Positions 12,796 through 51,120 are shown, numbered from the stretch's first letter. The stretch: DNA of 64,000 bases from Microthyrium microscopicum (GCA_010405405.1 MU004238.1:817530-881529); one strand, 5' to 3'. The notes: generated by a model not told the origin, from the letters alone. Made by a program: numbers and translations.

Positions 12796-13901
12796 TATTA
12801 TTAATTCTTACTTAACGTCTAATAGCGGGCGCGCTACGGGCCTATATAGATAAATGCTAATATTAGACCGTAAAAACCTACCTAATCTAGCTGATCTACC
12901 TAATTACCTACGGGTATTCTAACTATTAGCACACCAAAGAACTAAATTATATAGGAAAACTAACCCCTTGTGTTGCCGTTTGCCCCTTAGGCTAACGTTC
13001 TACCGTTATGCTAAGCTCTATTAGAAGCTTAATGTAGCTGTAAGTAATTATATAATATTACCTCTAAATTCTAAGTAATAGCCCTTAATTGGCCTAGCTA
13101 GGGCCCCTTCTATATAATAGTTTGTTAGCCGTTTAGGTAGTTGCTTCTATAAATAATAGTATGCTATATATTCTATACTAAGGCCGTAACAACGTAGCCT
13201 TAGTCTGATTCCATTCCTATTGCTTATTCTAATCTCGCCGTTCTTATTGCTATATTTCTAAGGAGGCGCCGTTAGTCTACCAAAGGTTCTCTAACTACGC
13301 TATGCTTCGCTTTAAGCTATGAATCCTAATCTAGTATTCTAAAGAATATTAGCTCTTTTTGGTGGAGCGGGTTGGGTCGGCCGATATAAACTCTATAATA
13401 GCTAGGCCGAAATGTTACGTAATAACTAGTATCTTTACCTTTCGGACTATTAATCCCTAGATTAATTTAGCTTAGTTAGATCTAATAACGGCTATCTAAT
13501 CTTATTACTAAGAGCCGTAGCTAATGATTCTTAGTATGCTAAATAGGCTCCCTTGGTATCTACAACGCGTTATATAGTACGCTTTTATGTTGTTATAAGC
13601 GCCCTTTAGGAGGTTGCTTAGGATGTCGTAGAAATATACGCTAGACTATTCTAGGGTTAGTATAGGCTTAGTAAGAAGAATCTTACTAGGCTAGTAGCTA
13701 TAATTACTACTTTAGCCGTCGTCGCTACTACTTCTAAAAATAATAGGTACGTGCCTACTACTTCTAGAAGCAGCTATTGCTAATTTTAGTCGTAATAGTT
13801 ACTAAAATTAGGAGGAGGAGTGTAGGAATTAAACCTACGCCTTCTTGATCCGTAGTAGAAGCTACGGTAAGTCGAGATATACTCTACTATACTAACTCCC
13901 C
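12796..13901 (-). mobile_element. About 1.1-kb tRNA-derived SINE inserted in LINE ORF1, partially RIP-mutated
   Basis: 13-bp TSD TATATAAATATAT at 12783-12795 and 13902-13914. The 5' end is a tRNA cloverleaf at 13815-13901 (acceptor GGGGAGT/ACTCCTC, T-arm GTAGG-TTTAATT-CCTAC). The 3' end is a short (TAA)n tail. No long ORF. Confidence 0.8.
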
Positions 13902-14374
13902 TATATAAATATATAAGTCTTTACTTATAGCGTCCTTATATATAACGTAAATATAGAAAGCCTTAAAAGAAATAAGTTAGAAATTATTAAGAAATAGACC
14001 TATTAAAACTAAGAAATATTCTATAAATATTTAATTAATAACTTCTTTTTGCTTAAAAAGCTAAATATAAATTAAAAAGATATATTAATAGTTCTTAACT
14101 TTAAAGCCCTATTTATTATTAATAACGTTTTATATATTAAGGTTCTTAATTAAAATAGAGGAATTAAAAAAGTCTAAAAATATACTAAGAACTATAAAAT
14201 TAAAAAATATTTTAAATATTATAAATATAAATATATAGAAACTTAATATTCTAAGAGTAATTATTATAGCTATTATACCTTATATACTTATCTAACCTTA
14301 GTTTATTAATTAGTAAATAATATACTAAAATACTACCTTTATAATAGACTATATAAAACGTAATTAATAATATA

Positions 14375-14693
14375 TATAAAAGATAGTTTAAAGTAAGGGA
14401 AATAGATTCTAAGAACTAGTATTAAGATAAGACTAATACTTAATCTTCTAAGAGATTAAGTCTACTTCTTTACTTATGCTCTTTTTTATCTCTTTTTTAG
14501 TAAGGCTATTTCTTCTTCTTATTCTTAGCTCTATTTTAGCTTCGTCTTATTATAGTAGAGAGTAGGCACTATCTATATTAACTTAGTAGTTTATTAGTAA
14601 AAAGCTTTTTTATAGCATACTATAAGAGTAGAGTAAGTAAGAAGGTAGTAAAATACTTACGTCTCTATAGTAAGTCTATAAGGATTTATAATA
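14375..14693 (-). repeat. 3' LTR of the Gypsy element
   Basis: Colinear copy of 22825-23143; the differences seen are C/T or G/A transitions. Confidence 0.92.
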
Positions 14694-17600: not shown

Positions 17601-20600
17601 TACTATTTCTATTTTTAGTTTTCTATTTTTTATCTTGCTAGTTAGTTACTTTTTTATAGTAAATAAAAAGCGTATAAAAATCTCTTCTCTCTTATAACGC
17701 CTTTTTTTATAGTTTTATTCTTCTTTTTTTCTTTTCTTTATAATAGTAAGCTTAAGTCTACTAGCTTCTTTAAAAACCTTAATTAAGTCTTATACGTTTT
17801 TATAGTCTTCTTCTTATTCCTAAGAGTTATAAATTAAGAGATAGCTTTATTAATAGATAAAGTATTTAACTTTTCCTTTCTATTTCCTTTTATTTAAGAT
17901 AGCTCTTACTTTCTATTCTTCTTTATTTTTTAGCTTAATAGCTATAGAGAGCTCTAGTTCTTTTTAACCTTCTCTTTAATAATATAGCTTAAGTTTAGAT
18001 ATATAGAAGACGTTATAGATTTAGTAGCCTATTAGGAAGTTTAGTTAATAAGCTTATTCTCTAACTATATTTTAGATACTAAATAGTCCTATATAGTAAA
18101 AGGCTAGCTTCTTACTTAGTAGTTTAAGTTTAATATTCTTTATTAATAGTAGAACTTTATCTCTTATATAGAATAATATTAAGGTATGCTTCTTATTATA
18201 GAACTTAGCTTAGTATTCTACTACTTTTTCTTAGCGTTTCGCTATCTTTTCTTAGTCTTATTTTATTCTTATTACTCTTTACTTTACTATTACTACTTTA
18301 CTTTCCTCTTCTTTAAGCCTATCCTTAGGGTTTATAAAGAGGTCTACTAAGAAGATTAGTTTATATCTTATTTTAGCTATATTTAGAGTATAGTTAAGTA
18401 TTTTATTATAAGACGTATTTATTACCTATTATATTATAAGTAAGAGGCTTAACTAGTTTGTTTAGTTTTTAGTAGTAAAGGCTTATAGATAATATCTTAG
18501 TACTAAGTTTTGCTACTTAGTTTAGCTATTAATTTATAAATACTAGGCTATAGATAGCCTATATTTTACCTTTCTTACTTAGTATAGTTTAGTCTAAAAT
18601 TTACTTATAAAAATAGATCCTCTATTTAATATAATACTTACTAGTAGGCCTTTTTTTAAGAAAACTCTTCTTTCTATAAGTTCTACTAGCTCTTTAGTAG
18701 TTATATCTTTTATAGTTTTAATATACTTTATTTATTTAGTATACTAATCTATAATTACTAATATAGCGTTAAATATTATAAGTCTATATTTATAAGGTAA
18801 TAAACTTATAATAAAGTCTATAGTAATTTCTTACTATAGTTAAATTAGTTAAGGTAGAGACTTTAACTTACTATAGGGTTAATACTATCTTATTTTTATT
18901 CTTTAGTAGATTAAGTAAGTCTTTACGTATATTTATACATCTTTTTTTATCTTTAGCTAGTAAAACTATTTATAGAATAGTTTTATAGTACTTTAGACTC
19001 TTAGGTATCTTATTAGTAAATTATTATAGTATATTACTAAGAGTTTATCTCTTAAGGTAAGCTTATAGAGTATATATAATTAGCCCTTATAATAGAGATA
19101 GTCTCTTTAGACTAACTAAGTATTCTTTAGCTATTAAGTCTCTTTAAACTTTAGCTATATATTAAGTACTTCTTAAATACGTTTAAGTTCTTTATTACTA
19201 TCTTAGGTAACTTAGACTAAGGTAATTAGCACGTTTAGAGCTTCTCTATTTATAATATATAGATTTTATATTATTTCTCTTATTATAGTTCTTAAAATAT
19301 AAATATAGTTTAGAGTAGTAATTACTTTCTAGAAGCTAAGGAAGTCTTTACTCTCTTTACTTATAGTATCTTAGTTACTTATTTACTTATAAGGTATCTT
19401 ACTTATTCTTAATACGTTTAGTACTAAGTAGTACTTAATATTAGATATCTTATTTATAAGGTTATACTTATTTATTATTAGCGTCTTGCTAATAAGTTAC
19501 TTTATTAGCTTAAGACTATTTATAAAGACTAGCTTTTTCTATTTCTTTTTTAAGAAGAGTCCTAGCTTTTTCTAAAGAGTAGGTAGTAAGTTATTTATAG
19601 CTTATTTTATAATAGTATAGTTAAGTTATTTTAATAGTATATCTATAGAATTTATCTTTTTACTTTAATACCTAATATAGAAGTTATACTTTACTAATAT
19701 AATTACTTAGCATACTTAGCGCTTATTTAAGTTCTTTTATTTTATAAACCCTACTAGGTTATTATAATTAGTTAAAATCTTAATAGGGTAGTAACTACCT
19801 TTAAGGTAATATTACTAATATTTTATAGCTTTAATAATAGTAAGGAGCTTCTAGTTATAGGTTTAATAGTTAATCTTAGCTTTTATTAATTTCCTTAACT
19901 AGAAAGTAATAAGGTACTATTAGCTATCTTTTTATAGCTAAGAAAGGATACTTATAATAGTATATTAGGACGTATTAATCTTAAAGTAGATCCTTTTCTT
20001 TAGGTTAAAATATATAAGGATAGAGGCTTTACTAAAAGCTATATAAAGCGTATAAAATACTTACGTTGCTTCCTTTATCTAAATAAAAGGTTTATATTTC
20101 CTTCTAAGTTATATACTCTTAAGTAAGTTAGTTAAGGATTTTGCTACCTTTAAGTAGCCTTTAATAAACCTATAGTAGAAATTTATAAAGCTAATAAATA
20201 CTTATATATTATTATAGCTCCTAGGTTCTAGCTACTTTATAATAGACTTAACTTAACTAAGATCTATTTTTACTCCTTTTATAGAGACTATAAAACTAAG
20301 GAATTTTACCTTATTAGTAAAGAATTAGTACTTCTTAGGATTAGTATAAAGCTTAGTAGCTAGTAAGTATTTTAATATAGTATATACATTATAAACATAA
20401 TCCTTATACGTTTTAAAGAAGATAAAGATATTATTAAGGTAAATAATATAGATAATATCTAAGAGTTTTACTAATACTTTATAAATATAAGCTTAGAACG
20501 TAGCTAGGGCGTTAGTAAGTCTAAAAGGTATAACTTAGTATTTATAGTATTTATACTAGGTATAGAATACTATCTTCTATTAATTTTATTCTCTAATAGG

Positions 20601-22824
20601 TATTTAGGTATAAGTATCCTTAAGGTTTATCTTAGTATAATATACTACTCTACTAAGTTAATCTAATATCTTACTTATTAAAGAAAGTAAGTAATAATTC
20701 TTAATAGTAATTATATTAAGTAAGTAATAGTCTACGTAAAGTTATAATTCTTTATTCTTTTTAGATATAAAGAGTATAGATACTTTAGCTAGGCTAGTTA
20801 ATTCCTAAATTTAGCCTTTTATAAGGGCTAACTTAAAGTATTCCTATAGTACTTTAAGTTTTATTACTAATAAGTTATAAATAAATCTAAAAGAAGGGTT
20901 TATAGTTATCTTAATAGTATGTTTAATACCTTTAGAGATAAGTTTATTCTTATTCTTAATCTTAACTTAAGAGGCTAAGTTCTATAGCTCTTATAGTAGT
21001 TTATTTTCTAAATTAATATCTACCTATAAGCTTAGCTTAAAGCTAATACTAGAGATTTCTACCTTCTTACTATTTAAGTATAAATACTTATTAAATTTTA
21101 TAGTTAGTTTAAATACCTTACTATATTCTTATAGCCCTTTCTTAAATATACTCTAGTCTATAATCTTATATTTTAGCTTCTCTTTTCTAAATAGCTACTT
21201 CTTCTACCTTAAGTAGATAGAGATATTATATTTCTCTTATAGAAGAGTTCTCTATATTATAAGGTAGGTATATTTAGTCTAATTAAAAGAAAAGAAATAG
21301 TATTTAATATCTTTATAGATACTAGAGGAGTTTTTATAATAGAAACGTAGCTAATACGTACTATAATATTTACTTCTTATTATATTATTAGTAAAACTTA
21401 TAGCTTAGATACTTTCTATAGTTACTTTCTTAAGGCTATAGCATTATATAAGTTATTTATTAATAATATTAATTTAACTACTAGTATCTAAGAGGACATT
21501 TATAGATTAGTCTTCTATAGTAAGAGAAAGATTAGCTATTATTTAAATCTATACCTCTATAGTCTAATTTAGTATTATAAAGATAGAGTTCTTAACCTTT
21601 ATAATACTTACTCTTTTCTTAGGTTAGTTTTAGATCCTAATAAGAAGAGAATAGTATTTAGGTTTCTTCTCTAGCCTTTATATCCTAAGAATTCTTCTTA
21701 CTCTTAAGTAGCCTAAGAGCCTCTTAGAAGCTTATTATACTTATTTATATAATACCTAAATAGATTATAATTATAATAGGTAATTCCCTTATATATCTTA
21801 CTATCTTTTCTAGGCTTTATACTTATTAGTAGGTAAGTTAATAGTATATACCTTATATAACTTTTATACTCTTATTATTTACCTTAGCTACCTTATAGAT
21901 TATAATTTAATTAGGAAGGTTAAGGATTAATATTACTTAATAAGTCTTCTTATAAGTACTTATAGGTAATCTACTAAAAGCATTTAGTAGTATTAACTAT
22001 ATTAAGTTTAGTAGTTAGGATATACTTTATTAATTTAATTTATTTCTATAGTTCTAAGGTTAGCTTAATAAGGAATTTTAAGTATTATTTATCTTCTTTA
22101 TAAGTTATATTAATACTAAGTTAGGTCTCTAGTAAGTTTAAGTAAGCATTAAACTCTATAGAAGTCTAAGTAGAGTACTACTTAGCTTCTTTAAGTTTCT
22201 TAATAACTAAAAGTTTAGCTATAGTAGAGTAAGCATATTAATATTAGAGCTATTTTATAAACTTCTTCTAAGTCTAAGTTAGTAGCTTAATCTTCTTCTT
22301 CTTTAAGTTCTATTAAGTTTATAAGTTAGGACTTATAAACTAGCTAGCCTATCTAATATAGCTCTCTTACGTAGTAAATTAAGAAAATACTAAATAGAAA
22401 GCGTTTTTTATACTTACAATCTAGTTAATAAGTTCTTATTAAGTCTTACGTTAAAAGACTATAAAGTTAATAGGTTTTAGTTCTCTTAGTTAAGAAGAAG
22501 GAGAAGGATTCTATTATAAGACTTATAATAAGGCTATAATCTTATTATAGAGCTATTACGTCTTAGCTACGTATACTTATTCTTATTTATTAATTTAAGC
22601 TATTACTATATAAAGAGTAGCTAAAGTAGCTTCTAAGTCTATTAGTAGTAGTAGGCTATTATATTAACTTAAGTTATTATTTAAGTTATTATCTAAGTTG
22701 TTATCTAAGTCTTTATCTTTATCTTTACCTTTATTTTAGCCTTTATTAGAGTTCCTTATACTCCTTATTATTATAAAGATTTATTAGGCTTACTACTATA
22801 TAGTACGTTAAGAAGTATTAGAAT

Positions 22825-23143
22825 TATAAAAAATAGTTTAAAGTAAAGGAAATAAATTCTAAGAACTAGTATTAAGATAAAACTAATACTTAATCTTCTA
22901 AGAGATTAAGTCTACCTCTTTACTTATACTCTTCTCTATCTCTTCTTTAGTAAGGCTACCTCTCCTTCTTATCCTTAGCTCTATTTTAGCTTTATCTCGT
23001 TATAGTAGAGGGTAGGTACTATCTACGTTAACTTAGTAGTTTACTAGTAAAGAGCTTTCCTATAGCGTACTATAAGAGTAGAGTAAGTAAGAAGGTAGCA
23101 AGATATCTACGCCTCTATAGTAAGTCTATAGAGGTTCGTAACA
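22825..23143 (-). repeat. 5' LTR of the Gypsy element
   Basis: Colinear copy of 14375-14693; retains the terminal ...AACA on the plus strand. Confidence 0.92.
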
Positions 23144-26100
23144 ATATATAAAAACTATAAAAAAGAAGAGAAAAAAATAGTAAAAGTAAAAGCTAAACTA
23201 GCTAAAAACGTATATTAGCTAAAGCCTATTAAGATAAGCCTATTACTATTTAAATTACTTATAAGAACTAATAAAGAAATATTACTTAAGGAAATATTAA
23301 AAGAACTACTTAGAACTATACTAATAAAAAAATTACTACTAATACTTATAGAAATATAACTATAATAGATATTATTACTACTAATAATAATATTTAAAAT
23401 AAATATAAATATAAAGTTAAAGGTTGTCCTATTAAAGCTAAAAGCTTTACTATTAATTAAGGTAAAACCTATAATTATAAAAGCTATTATATTAAAAGGT
23501 TTAGTCTTTATAAATATAAATATAATAACCCTTAAGATTAAACTAATAGGCATAAGGCTAACTATACTATATAGACTATTCCTTATTCTATTATTAGTAG
23601 AATTTATCTTAAATAGATAAAAAAGCTCTTTTAAAAAATAAAAGGACCTTAATAGCTTATTATTAATATCTTTCTTTATAAAAAAAAAGTAAGGAAGAGG
23701 CTTAGGATTAATAGGCTTAAAGTTATAAAAACTAAAGGAGGATAAGCTAATTAACTTTAATACTAATAAAAAAGAATAGAACAAAAATAAGGTAATAAGT
23801 ATTTTAATAGAAGTTAATAAATTATTTAACTATAAGAGTACTATAGTGTTAACTAAAGCTTTATCTTTAATAGTACTATTAAATAAAAAGCTAATAGTTT
23901 TAATAAGTATAAAGACCTAAAGTACTATTTTAAAATTAAATAATAATAAGTAATAATAATACTTTAGACGATACTATTATTAATATAAAAGATAAACTCT
24001 ATATTTTATAAATTAATATAAGAAAGAATATTAAGATTATAAAAAAAGTACTTATAAATAAAAGAATATAGAGTTATAATATTATAGTAATATAAGAACT
24101 ATAGCGAAGTATATAAAGAGATATACTAATAACTACTAATCTAATAGCTAATTAATTTTATTTATTCTACTTATTATTTTTAATAACTTAAGTTTATTTT
24201 TTTATAAATAACTCTATTCTTTTTTTATATATTTAAATTATATACCTTAGCTTAGATCTTACTATAGTTAAGATATAGCTATTTAACTACTTAATAATAA
24301 TTTATAATATATATAATCTTTATAAAGATAGTACTAAGCCTTTTACTAATGTTAATAACTTATAATATAGTATCTTTCCTTATCTTACGTTTATACTTTA
24401 ATATAACTAGTAATAATCTAATAGCGTAATAGTTATAAAAGATTTAAATATATACTACTATTAATAGGGTAGATATAAAATAAAAACCTATTATCTAAAA
24501 TATATTAAAATCTTTTAAGAAATACTTTAAAAGAATAGTCTTCTACTTAACTTTAAAGTAGATATTATTATAAGATTTATAAATATAAGGAATAATATAA
24601 TTAAAGGATCTATTATTAACCTTAGTTATGTAAGTTATAACTTATAGTAATATTTAATCTAAAGTAATATAGTAAACGTTTTAAATAAAGATTCTAATTA
24701 TCTTCTAATTAAAATAATTTTTAGTAACTTACTATAAGAGTAAAGCTTATAACGCAAAATCTTCTTATAAAATAAAATTAACCTTAATAAATTTTATAAA
24801 TAACTAAGTTAAAGACTTTTAAAAGAAGAAAATATAAGACTTAAAATAACTAAGTAAATTAATAAGACTTTAAAAACTATTATTAAAGTAATTAATAACG
24901 CTATTAAAACTACTATACTAATTAGTATTATTAAACCTAGATTACGCCTAAGATAGACTTTAAAATATATTATAAAACTTAAAGTATAAAAACGTATAAA
25001 ATATAAATATTAAAGAATAAGCCTTAATAAAAACTTTATCTAATTCTAACTTATAAGATAGAAAGTAAGTAAAACTATATATAAAGTATCTTAAGACTAT
25101 TATTAAGTTAAAATAAGTAATATAAAGAATACAGATAGTTTATAAAAACTTATAAAATAATTAAAGAATAAGAATACTATAAAAATAAACTTTACCTTAG
25201 ATATTAAGAACGCTAAAGATTAATTATAATATATAATAGAAGATAAAGCTAAAGTATATAATAATATATTCTTTTTAAAGCTACTAAAAGTAAATCTATT
25301 AAATATTTAAGGCTACTAGTATAGATAATCTTTAATAATATTAATAATTACTTAATATAAAGTAACAAAAGCTATTAAGAAAATAAGCCTTAATAAGGCT
25401 ATAGGCTTAAACAATATTAAACATAAAGCTATTAATATAGCCTTTAATAAGCTCTTTTAGATTCTTATACCTTTCTTTAACGCCTATTTAAACTTAAGAT
25501 ATTATCTAATATATTTTAAGAGTTTAAATACTATTATACTTTATAAGCTAGGTAAGCTAGATTATACTATAACTAAAACCTATTAATTTATAACATTACT
25601 TAATACTTTAAGTAAAGTTATAAATAAAGTCTTAACTAAAAGACTTATATACTTAATTAAGAAATACTAACTACTATCTTAGATATATTATAAAAGAAGA
25701 TAAGCCTTATTTTATAATTACGCCTTCTACCTTATCTTTAAAAAGATTCTAGCTAATTACTAATAGAGAATAACTATTAGTATAGTACTATTTAATAAAT
25801 TAAGCGCCTTTAATTTTATAAATTACTTATAACTATTTTATAAATTATAAGCTATTAATATACTAATAGTAGTAATTAACTACCTTAAAAGTACTCTTTA
25901 AGAATAATATACTATAATTATACTTTTAAAAGATAATACTACTAATATTCTATAATTATTAAGTATTCCTTAAAGCTTATTTATCTTATTACTCCTATAT
26001 ATTATTTATAACTCTCTACTAGTCTAAATTAGTTAATATCTTAATAACTACCTTATTATTATATTTATTAATAATATTAGCTATATAGCTAAAGATAAAA

Positions 26101-28965
26101 ATACTATAAAAATAATAAGTATTCTCTTATAAATATATAAAGAAACTAAGTAATAGGTTACTAAGTCTACCTTAATATTTAACCTAGAAAAATATTAACT
26201 TATTTACTTTCTATACTTAATAATTAATAAAAGAAACCTTATTATTAAAGATAAACGTAAAGTAAATAAAGAGAGACTACTTTATATTTTACTTATAAAT
26301 AGAATAATCTAAATAATAAAGCTATTAATAACTATTAAATATCTTAGTATTATACTTAATAGTAAACTTATTAGAAATACCTATCTTACCTTTATAATTA
26401 AGAAAGCTAAAAAATATATTAATACTTTAGTTATAGTTAGTACCTTAATATAAAGTTTTTAACTATTATAACTAAAAACTTTATATAAAGGAATTATTAT
26501 ACCTTAAATACTATATAGACTAATAATATAGTATATATTAGCGTATAGCTATAATATAATTAAAAAGATTAAAAAGATTAAAAAAGCTATAATTATAATT
26601 TAAAAAAAAGCTCTTTATTATATATTTAGAGTATTTAAAACTATATTAATTACTACTTTTAAAGTCTAACTTATAATACTACTAATAAATATAACTATAA
26701 AATAATTTATAAAAAATATGTTTCTACGTATTTAAATATTACTAATATATTATAAAATACTACTCTTATAGAATAATTATAAGGATAGTCTTTCTATTAA
26801 AAATTATTACCTTCTTAGTTTATTATAAAAGCTTAAAAAGCTCTTTTTATAGAATTACTACTTATTTACTCTTTTATTAGATTTATAAAAGATAATCTTA
26901 TATTTAGAGGTTATTAAATCTAATATATTTCCTCTATAAGAAGAGTTAATACCTATCGTAATTATTAATAAGAAATAAGTAATTAAATTATATAATACTA
27001 TTATTAAAGTAGCTCTTAATAACTCTATAATATATATACTCTATAGTAATAAAAATACTATAAAGAATAAGGTTAGCTCTATAGCTTATAGTATATTAAT
27101 AATTAAAAAGACTTATCTTTATATAAGCTATAATAATATAAGTAATAACTATATAGCTAAATTATAAGAGATTATTTTAGCTCTTATAATAGCTTATACT
27201 ACTTTTACTATCTACCTTCTTATAAGAGATATTATAATCTTTATTAATAGCTAAAGTATTATAAAAGTAGTTTATAAATTAAAAGCTAAATTTAGTTAGT
27301 ATCTTATTATAAGAATAATATAGTACTTTAAAATATTAAAAAGAAAGGATATAAAAGTCCTTATCTATTAAGTATTAGCCTATATTAATATTAAGAAGAA
27401 TAAGTTAGTAAATAAAGCTATTAAAGAAGCTACTATTAGAAAAAACTAAAAGAGTTTAATTATTAATATATCTATATTACTATCCCTCTATAAGATTAAA
27501 ATAGTAATATTAATCTTAATTCTTTAAAGTACTAATTAAAAATAGAAAGAATACTAGACTAAAAGAACTATTAAATAATATTTCTTTAAATTTATTAAAG
27601 AATTCTCTACTATAAAAGGCATTCTTAAGACTTATAAGTTTATAAGTAAATACTCTTCTATAATACTTATTTAATTATACTTTAGAAAGATTACTTTTAA
27701 AGACTATTTTAAGAAGATAAGGGCTATAGAAAATAATATTTATAATTATAAATAGAAAAATTAAATACTATTCTACCTACTTATTTATTATATTAATTAT
27801 AATAATCTATGCAAAAGTATTTAACTATAAGGTTAATTAATTAATAAAAAAATATTCTTAATTAAGGTAAAGAAAGTAAAATACTCTTCTTACTTTATTT
27901 ATTAAATAAATATTCTTAAGTAATTTATAAACGTTAAGATATAACTATATTTACTTTATTAGTATTAAAGTAAAGATAAATAGTAATATATATAGTTTTT
28001 AATATATTATCTATTATTATAATATACCTTTCTTTATAATAACTTAAAAATATAAAATAAAATAATTATTAGATATTATTTAGGCTATTTTTTTTTAATA
28101 TTATATAATCCTTTAACGCTTATTAATTTATTTATTTATTTTAGTTCTATACTTACTTTTATTTTTATAATTATAAAAATTATGTTAGTAAATAAAATAC
28201 TTTTATTCTAATATAAAAACTTAATTTAATCTTTATTAAGACTAATTATAAAAAGAAATTTATACTTTATTACTATTATTATATATAAGAAAATATTAGT
28301 ATATTAAACTATAAGTAACTTAATTTTAATAAAAAACGCTATAATTTTAATATTTATCTTTAATATATTTTATTATCTTCTTATATAATAGCTAGCTCTT
28401 TATACTTAAGAGCTAATTAACTAGTTATAAAGGATAGACTAAGATTAAAATAGACTTACTAGTAATTTTAGATAACCTAATCTTCTAAGTAGGAGAATTA
28501 GTACTTAGACCTATAAAAGTAGTTTAACTACTTACTTAGGTAGATTTAGATCTTTAGATATAACCGACATAGCGCCATTTTGAGGCAGCTATAACGGATT
28601 AGGATTTAATCAAATCAAATCAAATCAAACTGGCTAAATTTCCTGGACATGTCGCAGCAACAGAGTAGCTCGAATCGGCAGACTGCAGACGAAGCGAATC
28701 CAAAAGGCGGCCTGCATGTGAAAGGATTCAGGCTGTGGGGTAGAGTACGTTTGATGAACCTGATATTAAGAACAGAGAGGAGTAAACTGTAGTAATGTAA
28801 ATGTTCGAAGCCAATGTATTGATGCCAACTCAGATGCTCGTTAACTCCCATAAGATTGCTTCATGGCTGCTAATCGTGTCAATCGTAGAGCAAAATCATT
28901 TCTGTCCTTCCGCAAATATTTAGCACGTTTGGTGCCGCAATCCCAATCGTTCTTGAAGTATAAAA

Positions 28966-29920: not shown

Positions 29921-32529
29921 ATGGCGTCGCAAACCTCATCGTCCCGCATATTTGTGCGCAATCTCCCCCTGTCCATATCAGACGATCAATTCCGCGCCCA
30001 CTTTGCGAAAAATGGCGAGACTACCGATTCCAAGCTGCTGCGTAACCGAAGAATGGGCTTTGTGGGCTACAAGTCTCCCGAGGATGCCAATGCCGCTGTA
30101 AAGTACTTCAACAGGACTTTCATTGGCATGGCAAGAATAGCTGTAGAGATTGCTCAGCCGGTACAATACACCTTGAATAGATCGGTCGCTTTTGTATCTA
30201 ACTTGTAGAAATAGTATGCAGAGGAACAGTCAAAGCCTAAGCAAGCCATCGTGCCTAAAGGATCCACCGAATCATCCAAGACTTTGAAGCGAAAGCGTGA
30301 GGTCCCAGACGAAAATACGGACCCAAAGCTGCGGGAATTTCTTGGGGTGATGCAATCGACTGCAAAATCAAAGACGTGGCAAAATGAAGTTGCCGTTGAT
30401 GATAATGATACAACCATGGCAGTGGACAAAGTGAATGAATCAGACGATGATGTTCAAGTTCTTCCTTCCAAGACGAAGCAGCAACAACAGTCAATCGATG
30501 CCATATTCGAGAGCGACTCAAATGAAGATACAGATCCAACGGCGGAGGCAAAGCCAATTACACAATCAGACAAGGACTGGCTACGGTCGAAGAAAGGGAA
30601 GCTTCTGGACGAGGACGCAATTCCTCAGGAGAAAGATCAAGAACTGGCGGAACAAGTGACCGCCGGCGATGCAGGCGATGAACCAGAGGACGTGGAAATG
30701 CAAGACGAAGATATTGACGAAAGTCCGGAAGTTTTCAAAATACGGCAATCAGGACGGCTGTTCCTTCGAAACCTATCCTTCAAAATAACGGAAGACGAGT
30801 TGCGAGAAGGATTTTCTCAATTCGGAGATCTTGAAGAAGTAAGTGACTCTTTTGTCCTTCTACACCAATCTGCCTTTATGATGAAGCCTGATAGGGACAT
30901 CCGATGCTACTCGCATATGAGGTGAACTCAGGAAAAGTATTTTAGTAGATGCTTCTTTTTGCTGATAATTGGCCTCTCAAACACCTTTAACTAGTACTTT
31001 ATGGTCTTACAGAAACTAACTGTAATCAGGTCCACGTCCCATCTGATAAGACAGGATCAAGTAAAGGCATTGCCTTTCTCTTGTTTGACGACCCGGAATC
31101 TGCTGTTGCAGCATATCAAACACTAGACGGCAAAACTTTCCAAGGTCGACTAATACACATTCTTCCCGCAGATCCCAAAAGAGAAAGCAAGCTGGATGAT
31201 TACGCCATTTCCAAGCTGCCCCTCAAGCAGCAGCAAAAGATCAAACAGAAAATGGAATCAAATCTGGCATCCTATAAGTGGAATTCACTGTACATGAACA
31301 TGGACGATGTCATGTCGTCAATAGCCACTCGTCTTGGAGTCGAAAAGTCTCAACTACTTGACCCAACATCTTCAGATGCTGCCGTCAAACAGGCCATTGC
31401 CGAAACTAATGTTATACAAGATGTCAAGTCGTATTTCGTGGAGAATGGCGTGTCTCTTGACAAATTCAAGCCAGGGAAGCAACGTGGCGACACAGCTATC
31501 CTCATAAAGAATCTTCCTCATGGCACAAGCCCTGATGAAATTCGGGAAGTATTCAGTGCTCATGGACGAATTTCTAGACTGCTTATTCCAAGAAGTGGAA
31601 CGATTGCGCTGATAGAATTTGGATCCGCACCCGAGGGCCGTGCAGCCTTTCAAGCCTTGAAGTACAAGAGGTTCAAGAACACGATTTTGTTCCTGGAGAA
31701 AGCGCCAAAGAACGTATTTGACAAGCCGGCACAGGGATCTGTTGTGGTTCCTGCCAAGGCCGATGGTATTAAGGCCAAACTAACCACTTCAGATCTACTT
31801 GAAGAAGCTCCAAATGTGGAAGCCATCGAAACTAGCACATTGTTTGTTCGAAATTTGAACTTCACGACAACCTCTGAAAAGCTTCGAGACACCTTCTCAC
31901 CATTGAGTGGTTTTGTATCTGCACGAGTTAAGACCAGAACTGATTCCAAGCGCCCTGGGGAAATTCTCAGCATGGGCTTTGGTTTCGTGGAGTTCAAGAG
32001 TAAATCCGAGGCTCAAAGTGCAATAGCTACTATGAATGGTCACTTCTTAGAGGGTCATACTCTGACCTTACAGCCTTCCCAACGAGTGTTGGACGCTGGT
32101 GAAGATCGACGTAAGCAAGACAAAGCCAAGGCTATAGCTAGCCAGCAGACCAAAGTCATCGTCAAGAACCTACCATTTGAGGCGTCGAAGAAGGACGTTC
32201 GCGCCTTGCTTGGTACTTATGGACAGTTGCGTTCTGTTCGTGTTCCCAAGAAATTTGACAGTTCTGCTCGTGGATTTGCATTTGCAGAGTTTACCACGGC
32301 TCGAGAAGCAGCCAACGCAATGGCTGCATTGAAAAGTACCCATCTTCTTGGTCGACGGTTGCACCTGGAGTATGCCGCACAAGATACGCTTGATCCCGAA
32401 GATGCGATCGAAAAGATGCAAAAGAAGGTTGGATCGCAGGTTGACAAGGTCGCCTTGCAGAAACTGACAGGCGCGGGCCGAAAGAAGTTCAACGTCTCAG
32501 GGAACGAGCCCACGGAGCCTGATGGTTGA
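29921..32529 (+). CDS. MRD1: Multiple RNA-binding-domain protein 1 (five RRMs, 40S ribosome biogenesis), 3 exons
   Basis: SRIFVRNLP...RRMGFVGYKS; WNSLYMNMDDVMSSIATRLGV...LLDPTSSDAAVKQAIAET; LSMGFGFVEF; LRSVRVPKKFDSSARGFAFAEF; THLLGRRL. Introns at about 30161-30214 and 30839-31030. Confidence 0.95.
30873..30970 (+). ncRNA. snR64: Box C/D snoRNA, snR64-like, in MRD1 intron 2
   Basis: Box C ATGATGA at 30878-30884. Guide GATAGGGACA (30890-30899) is complementary to 25S rRNA TGTCCCTATC and is followed by a D'-like CCGA (30901-30904). TTTTAGTAGA element. Box D CTGA at 30962-30965. The match to yeast snR64 is from recall. Confidence 0.8.
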
Positions 32530-42804: not shown

Positions 42805-45640
42805 AGTATAGTATTAAAGTAGATTATATAATAGATAGGTAGTAATAAAATAATATTAGTCTTTTATACTATATTATAAATACTATAAGATAGTTATCTT
42901 TTTAGAGAGCATTTTTAATAGTTAATAACTCGTATCGTATTAGAACTTCCTTAGTAAAAAGTTATAGAGTTCTATAATAGTCTATATATCTTTGCTAAGA
43001 ATAATATAGTTATATAATATAATATTAGTAGATTACTATATATTATAAAGCTAGTAATAGTTATTAAAGCTATTAATACTTCTCTAACTACTAAGAAAGT
43101 ATTTATAGATATTATAAAGATCTACTAGTCTATTTCTATCTTTCTTAGATATTAAGTAATATTAATAACTAATATCTAGACTAATTATAATTTAGTTAAT
43201 AGTACTATAAGAATAGTCCTTAATATCTAGTAGCCTATAGGAACTACTAATCCTTAATATACCTAACCTTTTATTATTATAATTACCTTTAATTAGTATA
43301 ATATTAATTTACTAGTCTATACTATAGTAAGTAATAAGAAATATATTTTAATCTTCTCTATTATATAGTAATTTAATTTTAAGGATAGAAACTACTATCA
43401 TACCTAATTTTCTTTAATATTAGCGTATACTATTATAGTTTATAAGTCTTAAGGAATTATAGTTAATAAAATAGTATTAGACATATTTATAAAAGATTTT
43501 ATATAGAGCTTAATATATATAGTAGTATTAAGAGTTAAGAGCTTTAATAGCTTAATGTTTACTAAACTATTTAACTATAAATAGTAAAATAGTAAAAAGG
43601 ATCTTACTAAAGGTATATAATAGTAGCTTTATAATTTTAATATACGCTAAAAATAGCTACTATTAAAATTTAAAGATAGAAATATACCTTTATAGCTACT
43701 TTTATTACTACCTCTATCTCTACCTTTATTACCTTTATTACTAGTAAGTTACTATTTACTACTTCTACTAATATTACCTTTATTATCCTAAGGTAGCTAT
43801 ATTATAATTACTAACGATAAGGATAAGTTACCTCTTTCTATATATTATAACTCTAATAATAGTAAGGCTAAAGAGGAAGAATAAGAAGAAAATCTAATAG
43901 TATTAAATAAAGATACTATATTTAATAATAACCTATAGTCCTCTCTCTATATATAATCTAAAATTTAAGTTAGATCTACCTCTTTTATTATTAGATTAAG
44001 TGCTTCTACCTTAATATTATATCTCTACCTCTCTCTTTCTAGATAACCTCTATAGCTTCTTAAATTTAATATTATCTTTAAATCTTATAATATATAATGT
44101 TATCCTTCTTAGTATTAAATATTTACTTTACTATTATTACCTATTTACTTCTCTCTTTTTAATACTTCTTTCTTAACTTTAACTAATACTTTTATATCCT
44201 TACTCTCTAATACTACTATTCTATATTTAATACTTACTTAATGCTTACTATTAGGTTATTTAATAAATATCCTTACTTAATAATAGTCTTAATCTAATAT
44301 TCTCTATAGAAATCTATTTAATCTACGTTAAATCTTACTTTATAATAAGTATTAATCCTATTTAGAGTTATTAATAATCTAATACTCTTAATTAATCTAA
44401 TACTCTTAATAGTACTCTTAATAACATTCTAATACTTTGCTATTAAACTATAGAGTATAAAGCATTTTAAATTCCTTTAATTTTAGACTTCTTCTTCTTC
44501 TCTCTAGCTTAATATTCTTTACTATTATATAAGTATAATATTATTACTTAATATTACGCATTTACTAACTATTACTATAGAACTATGCTACTTAGATTTA
44601 AAAATAACGTTAAAATACGATCTTCTATCTCCTTTTCTATTCTTATCGTTAAAGCTATAAATAGCAATATAAAAGAACTTTCTTCTCTCGTTATATTAGT
44701 AATACTTAATGTTAATAAGAAGTGCATCTTGCGTAATTAAACTACGCCTAGTAGTAGCTCTACTAAAAAAAAGCTAAAAAAATCTTTAATATCTATAGTA
44801 GCGTTTACGCTTATTAACTAGCTATTACCTTTAAAAGTTAATACTTATTACTTTTATATTAGTAATAATATATCTACCTTAGCTAATGTTATACTAGCTA
44901 TAAGTTATAGTATACTAATATATATTATATATACTTTACGTCTAGTAAAGTATTATAATAATTAAGGTTATTAGAAGAAGAATTTATACTTTACGTTCCT
45001 AAATATTAAGTATCTTTACGTAGATAATACGTATAAGTCTTTGCTATTATATTACTTTTTTCATTAAAGTAAAGTTTATAAGTATTCTAAGATATAAAGG
45101 GATAGTATTTAGGATAATCTTAAGGTATTTAGAATACTAAAAAACTTCTTTAAATATTATAATCTTAATTTAAAGAAGAAGACTTATAGCGCTATATTAA
45201 AATACTTAGAATAATATTAGGATATAGCTATAAAAGATATTATTAGGAAAGAGGAAGATAGTGCTAGTACTATTACTACTACTAATAATTTTGATAGTTA
45301 TTTATTATAAATATTAATTAATACTAGTAATAAACCCTTAGTACTATTTAGCTAAGTAAAGGTTCTATTTATACGTCTTAATTACGCTAAAGCTTTAGTT
45401 CGTAACACTTATATTTAATATATAAGTAATATTACTAATTTATAACGTTATTCTTTTAACGTCTTATATTAGATTATAGGTTAGGGTATAGATATTTCTT
45501 AATAGATCTTAGATAGTAACATTAACTAATATAATGTTACTTCTATTAGTATTAAAAACTATATTCTTCTATATTATAATATCTAATATTTAATATTATA
45601 TCTTATATTTAAACAATATTATAGCGGCCGCTAGCTAATT
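42805..45640. repeat. RIP-degraded AT-rich repeat DNA, unclassified (Helitron 3' part or a second element)
   Basis: Strong TpA excess and near absence of CpA/TpG. No helicase or transposase motif could be read with confidence. Confidence 0.6.
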
Positions 45641-46088
45641 AAGTTATAAAGAGCAAGCCTCTTCCCCCAAGGTTATATGGCCTACGTTGTTATATACTAG
45701 TAAGTAAACAGGCAGCTACGACCCACAGGTGCTTGCCTTTTTTGAAAACTGCAAGAGCGACCTCATAATCATTCTCAAGCAAGCCTCTACCCTGTTTGAG
45801 TATTTATAGACTTGGTGCTGAAGGTGAAGGGTAGCCTTTGATTTCATTTTCCGTCGAATGACTCCCAGATGTGGACAGTCACAGCCTGATGAAGAATCTG
45901 CTGCATAGAGATTGGAATTCTCAAAATCTGTGATTACATTGTTTGTATTCAAACACACACATCTCTCTCGAATCATGAAGAATATAATCATAGGCTAAGC
46001 TTGGAAACATAGCTCTGCTTGCTCTGTTTTCATCAGTCATAAACGTTCCCAAACTCGATCAAGACAAAAAGAAAACCAACAAGACCAT

Positions 46089-47675
46089 TTAGTGTTTTAC
46101 TGGCGGGCGCGATACTCTCGTTGCAACGAAAAAGAGTATCTTAATTGGCTTAGGAAACTGTAACCACAACCAGTCTTCCGGGCTAAAGCCAGCTTCCTCT
46201 AGAGGCACTAAAGTCGCTTCAAGAAGCCACATCAGCTCTCGATCTTGGTCCCCATCCCCCAGCACGATCTGAAGTGAGCAGAATTCTCCAGATATATAAT
46301 GGACAAATGTGTTGTGATGGTAATGCGGTGTCTCGGGCTCAGAAGGCTGGTCCCACTCGATGATATGCTGATCCGTTGGGTCGCGATCGTATCCAATTGT
46401 CCAACCTGCTAGGCGCGTGCCTTTTTTCGAGATGAGGGGGAGTATTGAATCCAATATTTGCCGTTGATTGAAGAAGTCTAGCCCATAGAGAAGATCGTGT
46501 ACTAGAATGATATCAAAGGCCCAAGTAGGCAGTTGCTTCTGCAATTTCGTCTTCTCTTCACTCGCAGATGTGCTCGTCAGGCCTCCACAGGCGAAGAGAT
46601 GTAAGTTGGTTTGTATGAACTTCGCGCTGGATGGTTTATGTCGGAATAGTCTTTTGCCCAACTTCCATAGCTCTTCCCATTCGTCCAAAGCATACATATG
46701 CCCACTTGCACCGTCAACGTGAAGTTGATGCAGTTCCTGGCCGAATCGAGATGCAATGTCAATTATCGAATGCCCTCTCTGGGCTATGTCAAGGATTCTG
46801 TGGTAGTATGGCGATTTGACCATCGTACTACGAAGGAACCACCACCGTCCGAGTGATGGCAATTGAATCGCATCCCAAGCTGCGGCGCGGATAGAAGCAA
46901 CATCTGACTCGAATAGGTAATCCTCATAGTTGAGAGGGTAGCATAAGAATCCTTTTGCTTCTGGGCCAATGGGAGGATTGAGCAAATACCAAGGGCAGTC
47001 AGTTCTGGTAGGAAAAGAATTTGGCCGGTAGTGCTCCATAATTCGCATCAATAGGCCGTGGCTTTGGCGACGATGATGGAGACGGTACGTCGGTTTGTCC
47101 AATTCGAGGGAGAAATTCTTGTTGTAGGCCTTGTGGATTCCATTTAGCCAATCAATTTCCTCCAAATTATCTTCTATCTCAAATTTGATGTTTCGAATTG
47201 CCCGGTGTATAAGGCCATCTTTATGTGCTAGCATGCGATATATCAGATCGACCTTCTCGCATTTATCCTTTGCTTCATTCTTGAGGTTTCGATTGGTTTG
47301 ATGTGCAAGATCATCAGTATTCCAGCAACTTGGCTTCCAATGCCTATAACCTGACAATGGATATCCTGAAGAGGAATTTGAGTGGCAGCTGACTGGAGCG
47401 CCTGAAGACAAGTTCGAATGGTCGTTGACTGGCGGTTCAGGAAGACATTCGAGGCTGTCCGATTGCTTATCCTTCTGGGGCTGTATCTCCAAAGGTTTAA
47501 CAAGTGTTCGAGTTGATCCTTGGCCTGATGGCAAATGTAATGTTAGGTCAGATGTCTCATCAAGCGTATAGAACATATCATCATAGTCCCTTTCGTTCTG
47601 GTCGACAGGTTGTGTTGATTGAGTAGAATCCTGGCCTGTCAGCCAATGTGTTGGTAGTTCAGAGGTCCAATTCAT
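46089..47675 (-). CDS. Divergent class I SAM-methyltransferase-like protein (AusD/Trt5-like fold) with long N-terminal extension
   Basis: 549-codon open frame. AWDAIQLPSLGRWWFL...SPYYHRIL...IIDIASRFGQELHQLHVDGA...MYALD...LWKLGKRLF...FDIILV. First ATG at 47675; true start uncertain. Confidence 0.65.
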   Translation of the reverse strand: MNWTSELPTHWLTGQDSTQSTQPVDQNERDYDDMFYTLDETSDLTLHLPSGQGSTRTLVKPLEIQPQKDKQSDSLECLPEPPVNDHSNLSSGAPVSCHSNSSSGYPLSGYRHWKPSCWNTDDLAHQTNRNLKNEAKDKCEKVDLIYRMLAHKDGLIHRAIRNIKFEIEDNLEEIDWLNGIHKAYNKNFSLELDKPTYRLHHRRQSHGLLMRIMEHYRPNSFPTRTDCPWYLLNPPIGPEAKGFLCYPLNYEDYLFESDVASIRAAAWDAIQLPSLGRWWFLRSTMVKSPYYHRILDIAQRGHSIIDIASRFGQELHQLHVDGASGHMYALDEWEELWKLGKRLFRHKPSSAKFIQTNLHLFACGGLTSTSASEEKTKLQKQLPTWAFDIILVHDLLYGLDFFNQRQILDSILPLISKKGTRLAGWTIGYDRDPTDQHIIEWDQPSEPETPHYHHNTFVHYISGEFCSLQIVLGDGDQDRELMWLLEATLVPLEEAGFSPEDWLWLQFPKPIKILFFVATRVSRPPVKH

Positions 47676-48709
47676 AGCATCGAGTTGTTTTTCAAAGTCC
47701 TTGGGAAGATCTCTGAACTCATCGGTATCCTGTCTCACGGGCAGCTACAGAAGTTCAGAATTTATGTTGGAAGATAGCAATCTGTACCGCTAAGATTGCC
47801 ATAAGCTGTAGCTTGAGCGGGCTAACTCTGATCTGAGGATCTTCATGGCTCCTCACATGAGTCGCCTGTGAGCTATGCCTTGTAGGATCTTTGATGCTGC
47901 GCTCAAAGTGCAAGGGCGTGAATCCAATAGTATCATGCATAAGTTACCAGCGCGGCTGTACATGAATGCCAACCACACATAATAACCAATAAAATTCCAA
48001 AGACGTCCCCAGTTTCCAGTTTGCTGGAGACAGTCAAGGCTGCATACCCTCACAAAGGATGAGACAGTTCTTACAACAGATGTTTGCCCACAAATCTGCA
48101 GCTTACTTTTGAGTAAATGATCTTCTTGCAGTTTCCCTATGTCAAAAAGCCCATTAAACACAATACCAGCTCAAATTATCATAAGCTACCTCTTCGTTCA
48201 TCTTTATTAGCTAGTCAAAAGGCATTGGATTATCTTTTACTCGGGGCCTATCATTTCTTGATTTGTGCGAACGGAAGTATTGAAGTGAATCACAAACCCA
48301 CAATGTATGAAAATATTAGATGTCGCTCACAACTCCCAATTTCAAACGGTATTTAATCTTGAAAGCTCTAGGTTCTTCTCTTATATCATGTGAACATATT
48401 TTAATTCTGAAAATTGTGATTAGTTGTGAACTTAAGAAAGATTATCCATCTGGACTTTGTAGGCTTTACAGGGGCTCACTATTATCATACAGGTTATACA
48501 AAGAATCCTCCTCTCTTCATGAATTATCCAATACCTATTAAAATAACTGATATTTTCGTCATATTAGCTTTGGAAAAGTTTAGTACTGTACCTTGTAATA
48601 AATTCGTTTAATAGACGCAGTGGTTCTCAGCTGGGAAAGGCACGTTAAAAGCTAAGATATAGTCGAGAGCTATATACAAACTTATGGCTATTGCCTTTCA
48701 CAATTCATC

Positions 48710-48908
48710 GGGCAATTGGTCTAGTGGTATGATTTTTCCTTAGCATCTAGCAGTACGTTGTACTAGCCGAGCTTGGAGTAAGTTTACCGTATCATACTAC
48801 TAGTTCAAAAAACTAACAACCCCGTCGAGAGGTCCAGTTGCGTATCCCTGTCATATTCCTTCGATCCTTTACTAACATGTTCAAGGGGTTCAATTCCCTG
48901 ATTGTCCA
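48710..48908 (+). tRNA. tRNA-Ala(AGC) gene split into 4 exons by one canonical tRNA intron and two spliceosomal-type introns
   Basis: Acceptor stem GGGCAAT/ATTGTCC with G3:U70 and discriminator A. A-box TGGTCTAGTGG. Anticodon AGC at 48742-48744. T-arm CA|GGG-TTCAATT-CCCTG. T10 terminator at 48915-48924. Inserts at 48746-48773, 48778-48827 and 48837-48885. Whether it is functional is unproven. Confidence 0.85.
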
Positions 48909-48914
48909 AATCAG

Positions 48915-48924
48915 TTTTTTTTTT
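48915..48924 (+). terminator. RNA polymerase III oligo(T) terminator of the tRNA-Ala gene
   Basis: Run of 10 T starting 7 nt after the discriminator base. Confidence 0.8.
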
Positions 48925-51120
48925 GCTTTGAGCTGCTATGAATTCGTTTTGCATTGTGTTTTTATATCTACCCCCTTACTTTTTTTTGCAACACGTTACA
49001 AAGTGTAAAATGTGAAAGAGTCGACGGCAAATCAATGCAGATTGGAATCAATGAAAACCATCTTGGCTTTTCGTACGTCGATGTCGGTCGTATCGAGGTA
49101 GAGAACTTCTGAGTACTGCTTGAAGACCGAACAAAAGACATTGAATCATTAAGTCCTTGGATTAAAGAGCGATAGTATCATTCGCTTCTAAAGACTGTTA
49201 CCGGTAAAAAAAGAAAACCTCTACCGGCAAGTAGCATTCTCCTAATGCTAGTTACGTATCACATCTAGTGACAGATCATGCCATGGCCCAGGAGTGTTAA
49301 AGTATGAAAATTATAGGTAGCTTCACAACTTCTTACTCCGTAGAATACTAATCACTACTAGAGCAAGTTGTTTGTTTTCATACTAACAAAGCGCAGTGAT
49401 CGAGATGAAATGTCAGCCTGCTTACCAGGAAATTAGAATGGCTCAAGGGTTGCAAGCGATAAGATAAAACATATACTAACATATGATTCCATACTCAAAG
49501 ACTATTGTTGATCTTGATCAGACAACCTCGTGGGAATTTATCACTCTTCAATTACAAGATGACCACGATAGATTGATGGTGAAGCTTTGCCTTTGCTACT
49601 CTTGTCTTGTGCCATCTTTCTCTATATTAACCTGCTACGAAAGGTAACATCAGCTTTATAACGCATTAGCTGGTAGATTTGATCGAAGCTTTGAGCCACG
49701 TCTCTCTTTGGTAGGTGTTCTTCATAAGGATTGGCAACGTTCCAATTCATTCATTTCTTCTTCTTGAAAAACATTCGATCGTGATTCACGAACTCTTTTC
49801 AGAAAGATAACACGGCCAAATGCCGCGTTCTGACGACCGAAGAGGTCCAAATGTAGACAATATGCTTCCCAGAAGTCATGATGGTGATATGGTTCTCAAC
49901 GATCGAAGAACACTGAATCCCCTATCCTATCAGAGGGCCGTAATGCTACAAATGGGTTGATATGCACTTTACCGTGGCGTCCAACTAAATAATGGCAAAC
50001 ATGAAACATTTCAATCGCATGGGGTCAGTCTTTCGTCACATGAGATAAGCTGATGTTTTCCTTGAAAAAGGGGGATTAGGAACCCTCTGGACAACATCCC
50101 ACTGAACAGATCAAGTCTGAGAGCAAGTCATGACCATAGATTTTACCGTTGTAATCTACATTGTGTATTTAAGAGGGTATCTAAAGTTTGTTCTCTTTGT
50201 ACAACCTACGGCTTGGGAATGGGTTGTACTAGCTCACTTGTGCATTGAATGGATACCTTACCATTATGTTTAAAGTGACCTAAGAATTGTAAAAAAAGTC
50301 TTAATGGAAAGTCTTATATGATCTCAGCAAATGAAAAATATTTTCCAGCACTAATAGTTCGTGAGTTGGTAGAAAACTTGCAGTGACTTCGCTACCAGCT
50401 GGCCGATCATATCGAATACTACATTTAGCACGTCCCAAGAATTGTGAAATAATGAGGCCTTATTGTCACTTTGGTTGATGATAAAACTACAATCTTATCA
50501 TACACGACAATTGGTGAAATTGCAATCATAGCAAGAATCCGACTTGTGCACTACATCGGGTTTACTCCCATGGGCGTAGGTTCCCGTCACTTCACCCAGT
50601 CCTCAACCTGGAAAAGCTTCAGCGCATCCCGCCATAATGAAGTTTGACAAGAATAACTAGCCTGAGCATACACCTTTACTCCATGAATTCCTTGGTCAAG
50701 TATACATGGTATCATCGTAGATGTGTTGCTGCTTGCACGAAGAGTGTCAGATATCGAACCCAAATCCAATCCCCACGTCACCAAGTTAACCTTCACTCTC
50801 CCTCAATGATGTTCCTGCTGGATTGAGTTTCAGCCCGTGCTCTTTGCGTTGCGCTCTTTCCTTCCAACATCGTGCTTTACTCCTTCTTATGGCCATGCGA
50901 ACTGGCTTCACGCGACGTGTGCCTTTCGCGTTTCTGGTCCACGTTTTCCTTCCCTTTCGAGGGTATCGAACGAGATTTCTTTCTTCTTTAGGGATATGCG
51001 ATGACTCAGGCCCCGTGATTTAGGTAGTGAATTTCTTATAAAAGGCCTGAGGTGCTGAAGTTTCCTCACTTTCGCCTCACTTCTTCACAAACCTCACTCA
51101 CTGAAGTAATTTTTTTAAAG

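Follow-up and report, generated by a model that had tools for sequence, protein, structure and literature searches.

Of the known systems, the one closest to the locus described here is that of the fungal U6 genes with their spliceosomal introns. A single fungal U6 gene can carry up to four introns, and the intron in the U6 gene of S. pombe is removed by the spliceosome (PMC5855946). The fungal U6 introns are short, with canonical 5', branch and 3' sites and otherwise unconserved sequences, and many of them appear to be lineage-specific insertions (PMC5855946). Introns of the spliceosomal type outside protein-coding genes are also found in the genes for U1, U2 and U5 RNA and in rRNA genes, including ascomycete rDNA (PMC5855946), and in U3 (PMC5832005); tRNA genes are not on the list given in the former source. 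In a 2025 paper the three nuclear intron types are called completely unrelated and spliceosomal introns are placed in Pol II transcripts, nuclear tRNA introns and spliceosomal introns being treated as unrelated systems with separate substrates (PMC12530127). In a review on tRNA introns the word stem "spliceosom" is absent (PMC4090602). Among the matches listed in a search of full-text papers, largely from outside the subscription journals, none described spliceosomal introns in tRNA genes; a preliminary description of the present locus had likewise known of none.

The locus was studied within a 64-kb stretch of DNA, analysed as a whole and called the window here. The window appears to be ascomycete DNA, probably of a filamentous species, as judged by a match to an Aspergillus box C/D snoRNA family, by the nearest Atlas clusters of a neighbouring protein, most of which are from Ascomycota, and by AT-rich blocks of 17-26% GC. 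At positions 48710-48908 of the plus strand the sequence reads as in the preliminary description, that is, as a tRNA-Ala(AGC) gene interrupted by three inserts. Like fungal U6, the host is a small structured RNA gene of the Pol III type with A and B box-type promoter elements. Unlike U6, a tRNA is not part of the spliceosome, and the origin proposed for the U6 introns, by reverse splicing at the active site, is not directly applicable; moreover, the window copy has one defective signal in each of inserts 2 and 3, and its splicing is putative. A tRNA host that also carries a Sen-type intron would be new relative to the fungal U6 introns. From the introns of U1, U2, U5, U3 and rDNA the present case differs in the host, which is a tRNA, and in the exons left, which are of only 4 and 9 nt. 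The ectopic introns of Cyanidioschyzon merolae and of Archaea are similar in that a tRNA gene is split at several places, stems included, and is missed by standard finders. However, those introns are defined by a BHB motif and cut by an endonuclease, whereas inserts 2 and 3 are without a BHB motif and carry signals of the GT/CTAAC/AG type; to our knowledge ectopic BHB tRNA introns are not known in fungi. The canonical position-37 intron, which is processed by Sen and tRNA ligase, corresponds only to insert 1, by which the anticodon helix is extended, and leaves inserts 2 and 3 unexplained. Introner-like elements are short spliceosomal introns with complete splice signals which multiply into new sites in some ascomycete lineages. 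They are present in many similar copies per genome, unlike inserts 2 and 3, which are single-copy within the 64-kb window.

Structure of the locus

Joining of positions 48710-48745, 48774-48777, 48828-48836 and 48886-48908 produces an RNA of 72 nt, which ARAGORN identifies as tRNA-Ala(agc). The product forms 20 of 21 stem pairs and contains the G3:U70 identity pair, in agreement with the 72-nt cloverleaf proposed earlier. The single unpaired stem position, 13:22 in the D stem, results from the D-arm sequence, which is fixed in every relative by the search pattern used below. No tRNA match was obtained for the unspliced locus 48710-48908 in ARAGORN or Rfam, a permissive Rfam scan included, and ARAGORN with long introns allowed produced only spurious calls in the raw window, with introns of 838 and 2383 nt. 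When the 140-nt interior was shuffled, the 13 nt absent from the cloverleaf could be built from at most two ordered pieces of it in 46 of 200000 shuffles.

Exon 1 (48710-48745, plus strand, as are all features of this locus) encodes the 5' strand of the acceptor stem, the D arm with the A box, the 5' strand of the anticodon stem and the loop up to A37. Exon 2 (48774-48777) has the sequence TGGA, comprises position 38 and three nucleotides of the 3' strand of the anticodon stem, and stands immediately 5' of the GTAAGT of insert 2. Exon 3 (48828-48836), AGAGGTCCA, contains the end of the anticodon stem, the variable loop AGGTC, which is that of the closest relatives, and nucleotides 1-2 of the T stem. 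Exon 4 (48886-48908) encodes the remainder of the T stem, the T loop with the B box GGTTCAATTCC, the 3' strand of the acceptor stem and the discriminator A.

The A box region, the B box and a terminator-like run of ten T residues, which had been noted before, were all located in the sequence, the boxes being about 170 bp apart as judged by the general box consensus. The T10 run (48915-48924) begins 6 nt past the end of the tRNA, and related genes have runs of T4-T9 at the same place. A TATATA element, read in the sequence at 48671-48676, lies about 35-39 nt 5' of tRNA position 1; TATA-like runs are found at a similar upstream distance in several related tRNA-Ala genes, and the element may have a role in the selection of the Pol III start. 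The motif TTTCACAATTCATC (48696-48709) abuts the 5' end of the tRNA. An identical 14-nt sequence stands upstream of the uninterrupted tRNA-Ala gene of the metagenome locus L014, 4 nt away from the gene, and similar motifs of the TCTCACAAT type precede the genes of L007, L008 and L033. By its sequence, this motif is a candidate functional element.

A misassembly of the locus was considered and rejected, being contradicted by Logan contigs from three DNA runs (X1, X3 and X4), which span the locus with 0 differing letters and all derive from one sample, possibly the source of the window itself and not independent of it. No RNA run was among those listed as containing the locus; a further run, X5, which is guessed to be RNA, aligns only to the neighbouring gene at 45682-47872.

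Insert 1 is a 28-nt intron located after position 37 (48746-48773, or equivalently 48747-48774). After removal of inserts 2 and 3, ARAGORN reports a tRNA-Ala with the intron i(37,28), and in the BHB register of this intron the anticodon helix has 4 of 4 pairs and the central helix 3 of 4. RNAfold predicts for the same sequence a paired acceptor stem and T arm, an anticodon helix extended by the intron, and an open D arm. Among the 49 related genes that ARAGORN called, 24 have an intron in or beside the anticodon loop; insert 1 is thus an ordinary trait of this tRNA-Ala(AGC) family, and its earlier assignment as a canonical 37/38 tRNA intron agrees with both the call and the relatives.

Related genes in metagenomes

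Relatives were collected from metagenomes with a pattern consisting of the D arm and the anticodon loop (TTAGCA), which gave 52 matches in 49 loci; the same pattern gave 0 matches each in viral_contigs and in genome_contigs. ARAGORN, with introns allowed, found 49 tRNA genes in 46 of the 49 loci and nothing in L004, L045 and L028, the last of which is cut by the end of its contig. Parsing succeeded for 46 of the 52 matches and gave 11 distinct mature sequences, the other 6 matches having failed a simple parsing rule and been left out. The mature tRNA of the window differs from these 11 sequences at 9-16 positions, and from the nearest of them at 9-12 of 72, mostly in compensated pairs. Compared with the type represented by L010 and L014 there are 10 differences, all of them located in 5 stem pairs that are changed on both sides, with 0 one-sided changes. 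In 2 of these 5 double-changed pairs one partner lies in the 4-nt or the 9-nt piece. Decayed tRNA-Ala copies were otherwise not seen among the metagenome matches. Given the compensated pair changes and the 14-nt upstream motif common to L014, the sequence supports a derivation of the locus from a real, structurally constrained tRNA-Ala(AGC) gene with promoter context.

Anatomy of inserts 2 and 3

Insert 2 (48778-48827) is 50 nt long and is located in the 3' strand of the anticodon stem. It starts with GTAAGT, contains AACTAAC at 48811-48817 and ends with CG. Insert 3 (48837-48885, or equivalently 48838-48886) is 49 nt long and is located in the 5' strand of the T stem; it starts with GTTGCG, contains TACTAAC at 48870-48876 and ends with AAG. 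The putative branch A is found 11 nt before the end of insert 2 and 10 nt before the end of insert 3. The motif CTAAC by itself falls into the observed branch zone in 2-5% of shuffles. Taken jointly, the features of insert 2 (GTRHGT at the start and CTAAC at a distance of 5-27 nt from the end) were reproduced in 5 of 300000 shuffles, and those of insert 3 (a GT start, CTAAC and an AG end) in 13 of 300000. A strict-pattern set of 17 candidate mRNA introns, taken from the GC-normal parts of the window, ranges from 39 to 92 nt with a median of 55, and the lengths of the two inserts fit within it. The earlier statement that the inserts look like mRNA introns is borne out by their length, their GT starts, the CTAAC motifs and the AAG end of insert 3, and not by the CG end of insert 2 or the GTTGCG start of insert 3.

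The BHB motif, with two 3-nt bulges and a 4-bp helix, was sought at both inserts. At insert 2 the central helix had 2 of 4 pairs and the flanking helices were poor; at insert 3 it had 1 of 4 pairs, again with poor flanking helices, at either of the equivalent boundaries. Removal of the inserts by Sen alone, which the preliminary description had named as a finding that would speak against the spliceosome, is unsupported by this check. Taken as sequences, inserts 2 and 3 are thus supported as having the anatomy of spliceosomal introns and not that of BHB/Sen substrates.

No further copies of either insert were found in the 64-kb window, where the best exact matches were 11 nt long and a few imperfect matches extended over 13-17 nt. 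Insert 2 contains an inverted-repeat arm of 18 nt (48791-48808) complementary to the D arm and A box at 48716-48733. The two segments are 83% complementary, and a count by hand that admits G-U gives 17 paired positions of 18. The energy of the duplex, -23.1 kcal/mol, was reached by 6 of 1000 shuffles. Intron-exon pairing of this kind was not seen in insert 3 or in the inserts of L004 and L045 described below. The inverted repeat could be a trace of the origin of the insert, or it could serve in intron-exon pairing.

Two further genes with intron-type inserts

The metagenome loci L004 and L045 each have an insert of the same type. In L004, a 56-nt insert of the form GTAAGT...TTCTAAC...CTCTGTAG is located between nt 8 and 9 in addition to a canonical 29-nt intron, and in L045 a 54-nt insert of the form GTAAGT...CCTAAC...TTATAG is located in the 5' strand of the T stem. 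With the insert taken out, each of the two genes is called as tRNA-Ala(agc). The joint signal features were reproduced in 1 of 300000 shuffles for L004 and in 2 of 300000 for L045. It had been predicted that standard tRNA finders would miss such genes, and ARAGORN was indeed silent on both loci carrying a spliceosomal-type insert.

Both genes have flaws of their own. The T loop of L045 has one extra A and its B box is altered. The insert of L004 moves the A box about 56 nt from the 5' end, and the first T4 run is found 36 nt past the gene, behind a T-arm-like hairpin. This second hairpin (CAGCG TTCAAAT CGCTG, within 160-245 of L004), located 3' of the tRNA and ahead of the first T run, points to either a partial duplication or a leftover of a neighbouring tRNA.

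The three genes, that of the window included, are different isodecoders, and their four inserts occupy four different positions; on these two grounds they look like independent events. Some likeness between the inserts was found at the sequence level. The insert of L045 (443-496) has a start resembling GTAAG(T)TTACCG, as does insert 2 (48778-48789), and towards its end it shares TTNCTAACA(G)TGTT with insert 3 (48868-48881), the scores for insert 2 and insert 3 being reached by 39 and 40 of 1000 shuffles. Splice consensus makes up much of these matches, so the likeness is suggestive only, and could reflect either the consensus alone or distant kinship. Judged from these sequences, spliceosomal-type inserts in fungal tRNA-Ala(AGC) genes look like a real and recurring kind of thing. 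For the hidden family of such genes that had been suspected, the two independent metagenome cases, with one complete intron-type insert each, provide two candidate members, whose splicing is a prediction.

Splice signals and T runs of the window copy

The 3' boundary of insert 2 is unique, and no shifted boundary was found that would give the same 72-nt product. The closest AG lies 2 nt further on, at 48828-48829, and both this AG and the following one at 48830-48831 are preceded by G. Use of the first AG would yield a 70-nt RNA with a variable loop of 3 nt, the parsed relatives having loops of 5 nt, and use of the second would yield a product without any ARAGORN call. With CG at the end of insert 2, only a GT-CG excision would produce the 72 nt. 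The proposed maturation by the spliceosome first and Sen second fails at this point under the GT-AG rules.

The consensus of fungal 5' splice sites is GTRNGT; the GTAAGT of insert 2 is a full match to it, and the start of insert 3, GTTGCG, is weak by that measure, as it agrees with the consensus at GT only. The weakness is expressed relative to this general consensus because an ORF-joining intron finder, applied to obtain the 5' sites of this genome, gave 62 candidates inside ORFs that were mostly false. The strong signals of the locus are the outer ones, namely the GTAAGT of insert 2 and the TACTAAC and AAG of insert 3, which together delimit a well-formed intron of 108 nt. If the spliceosome acts on this sequence, the 9-nt piece would probably be skipped, because the strong sites are the outer ones and the piece itself lacks an acceptor before it and has a weak donor behind it.

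A T5 run is present in exon 1 (48733-48737), where 0 of 51 parsed relatives have one. An internal T4 run is present in 16 relatives; in 15 of these 16 the first downstream T run is T5 or longer, and in 8 of the 15 it is exactly T5. A run of T5 can act as a Pol III terminator, and the one in exon 1 argues against efficient read-through by Pol III. The absence of T4 runs from the inserts had earlier been taken to fit such read-through. The absence itself is confirmed for inserts 2 and 3, but it says little: 3 of the 17 candidate mRNA introns have a T4 run, and the absence over all four spliceosomal-type inserts has a joint chance of 0.20, so it was rejected as a sign of Pol III compatibility.

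Interpretation

We lean, with modest confidence, towards the explanation that the window contains a copy of a tRNA-Ala(AGC) gene that was invaded by two intron-type inserts, a process recurrent elsewhere, and that now likely gives no normal tRNA. The starting point would be a nuclear tRNA-Ala(AGC) gene of a filamentous ascomycete with TATA and CACAAT-type elements, a position-37 intron and the T10 run. Two spliceosomal-type inserts of roughly 50 nt would then have entered it, one in the anticodon stem (3' strand) and the other in the T stem (5' strand). The spliceosome would join the strong outer sites with loss of the 9-nt piece, or would use the AG 2 nt on and leave the 70-nt RNA, and the T5 run of exon 1 could stop Pol III. 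What the analysis shows is the anatomy of the sequence with its shuffle statistics, the relatives and the lack of BHB motifs in inserts 2 and 3; that Pol III transcribes the locus, that the spliceosome acts on it and that the window copy is now inactive is what we infer.

Inactivity is contradicted to some extent by the state of the gene. Its exons are undamaged: all stems pair, no conserved position is lost, and both a terminator and promoter-like elements are in place, which is not what one would expect of a gene dead for long. The defects of this copy are located in its splice signals and in the T5 run. Of the complete genes in the 49 metagenome loci only L004 and L045 are aberrant, their inserts are well-formed, and the lack of decayed copies is more in keeping with retention by function than with random decay. 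The DNA runs are all from one sample, and insert 2 could owe its CG end to a recent change in this strain. It is also conceivable, although we hold this only tentatively, that filamentous ascomycetes possess a hidden class of tRNA genes with true spliceosomal introns at varied positions. The positions would be nt 8/9, the anticodon stem and the T stem, the spliceosome would act first and Sen second wherever a position-37 intron is present, and the gene of the window would be either a member of the class or a very recent casualty.

If such a class exists, one small RNA needs both splicing machineries in a fixed order, the reach of the spliceosome into Pol III transcripts goes beyond U6, and the tRNA gene counts of fungi are underestimates. 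Even if all three genes are dead copies, three different fungi show intron-type sequences that landed precisely within tRNA genes of 72 nt. The landing sites constrain the ways in which new introns spread, whether they reach abundant RNAs through reverse splicing or insert into open Pol III chromatin.

That the window copy itself is a working gene, transcribed by Pol III, freed of inserts 2 and 3 by exact spliceosomal removal and then processed by Sen to a functional 72-nt tRNA-Ala, is in our opinion unlikely. In S. pombe U6 the spliceosome takes an intron out of a Pol III transcript (PMC5855946), which is a precedent, and L004 and L045 are analogues with complete signals. The flawless exons with their compensatory pair changes, the promoter-like elements with the T10 terminator and the presence of a CTAAC-type branch motif in both inserts (AACTAAC and TACTAAC) would be as expected of a working gene, as would the fold of a precursor without inserts 2 and 3, in which the acceptor stem, the T arm and the helix of anticodon stem and intron are formed and the D arm is open. 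However, such a gene would have to excise insert 2 as GT-CG, no shifted boundary giving the same product and the two nearest AGs, each preceded by G, yielding a 70-nt product or none. It would further have to recognize a 5' site of insert 3 that agrees with the fungal consensus at GT only, to retain a 9-nt exon that should be skipped between a missing acceptor and a weak donor, and to be transcribed through the T5 run of exon 1.

We regard it as improbable that the inserts are not derived from introns at all, and that the locus is a dead tRNA gene with unrelated insertions, local duplications or products of templated repair in which the motifs are incidental. The 18-nt inverted copy of the D arm in insert 2 is a type of mark that foldback or templated repair leaves behind, each insert has one signal missing or weak, and a second copy of either insert is not present in the window. 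Incidental motifs are difficult to reconcile with joint signals found in only 5 and 13 of 300000 shuffles, with a GTAAGT that starts exactly at the break in the tRNA sequence, and with the complete intron signals of L004 and L045 at exact tRNA breakpoints. Tests for a tandem-duplication origin of inserts 2 and 3 were not significant, as 14672 and 11095 of 20000 shuffles scored as well (15779 and 3982 in the further comparisons), and this origin was rejected.

The inserts could also be introns of a Pol II transcript, a non-coding RNA or a long UTR, in which the tRNA part is a passenger or from which it is released. The spliceosome normally works on Pol II transcripts, and a region of about 3 kb without an ORF of at least 80 aa (48171-51030) leaves room for an unannotated transcript. 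Such a host would not account for the A and B boxes, the upstream motifs common to ordinary tRNA genes and the T10 run 6 nt past the 3' end; furthermore, the boundaries of the inserts are exact tRNA breakpoints, which is not required of an unrelated host transcript, and we consider this origin quite improbable. Finally, multiple and ectopic tRNA introns do exist in a eukaryotic nucleus, that of Cyanidioschyzon merolae (PMC3728597), as well as in Archaea, but the view that all three inserts are Sen-cut BHB introns of this kind is very improbable, since in inserts 2 and 3 only 1-2 of the 4 central-helix positions pair and the flanking helices are poor, at either equivalent boundary, and both inserts bear spliceosomal signals instead.

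Other features of the window

A second tRNA-like sequence was found in the window at 13814-13901 on the minus strand. It is an 88-nt Rfam tRNA match of 38.9 bits on which ARAGORN was silent, it lies in an AT-rich block, and its D and T loops appear to be mutated by transitions. Probably it is a tRNA gene degraded together with the surrounding repeat-like DNA. The AT-rich blocks at 12001-28000 and from 40001 to about 45600 have 17-26% GC, the gene-bearing DNA having 42-50%, and they resemble the repeat-induced-point-mutation isochores of some filamentous ascomycetes. The Logan contigs break at about 45500-45690, which suggests the presence of repeats there.

A box C/D snoRNA of the Aspergillus family Afu_335 was identified with Rfam (75.8 bits) at 30874-30967 on the plus strand, between two long ORFs of the same strand. 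The second of these ORFs (30991-32526, plus strand) encodes a protein with four RRM domains, and the snoRNA is probably intronic. An Rfam match to the Helicobacter 5' ureB small RNA (69.4 bits) was obtained at 1932-2220 on the plus strand, antisense to an ORF (597-1991, minus strand) that matches the amidohydrolase family. This ORF is probably a urease gene, and the match most likely reflects conservation of the coding sequence and not a small RNA. An ORF of 461 aa at 8824-10206 on the plus strand has a weak match, under the Pfam cutoff, to the aspartyl protease domain of gag-polyproteins, and may be a retroelement remnant.
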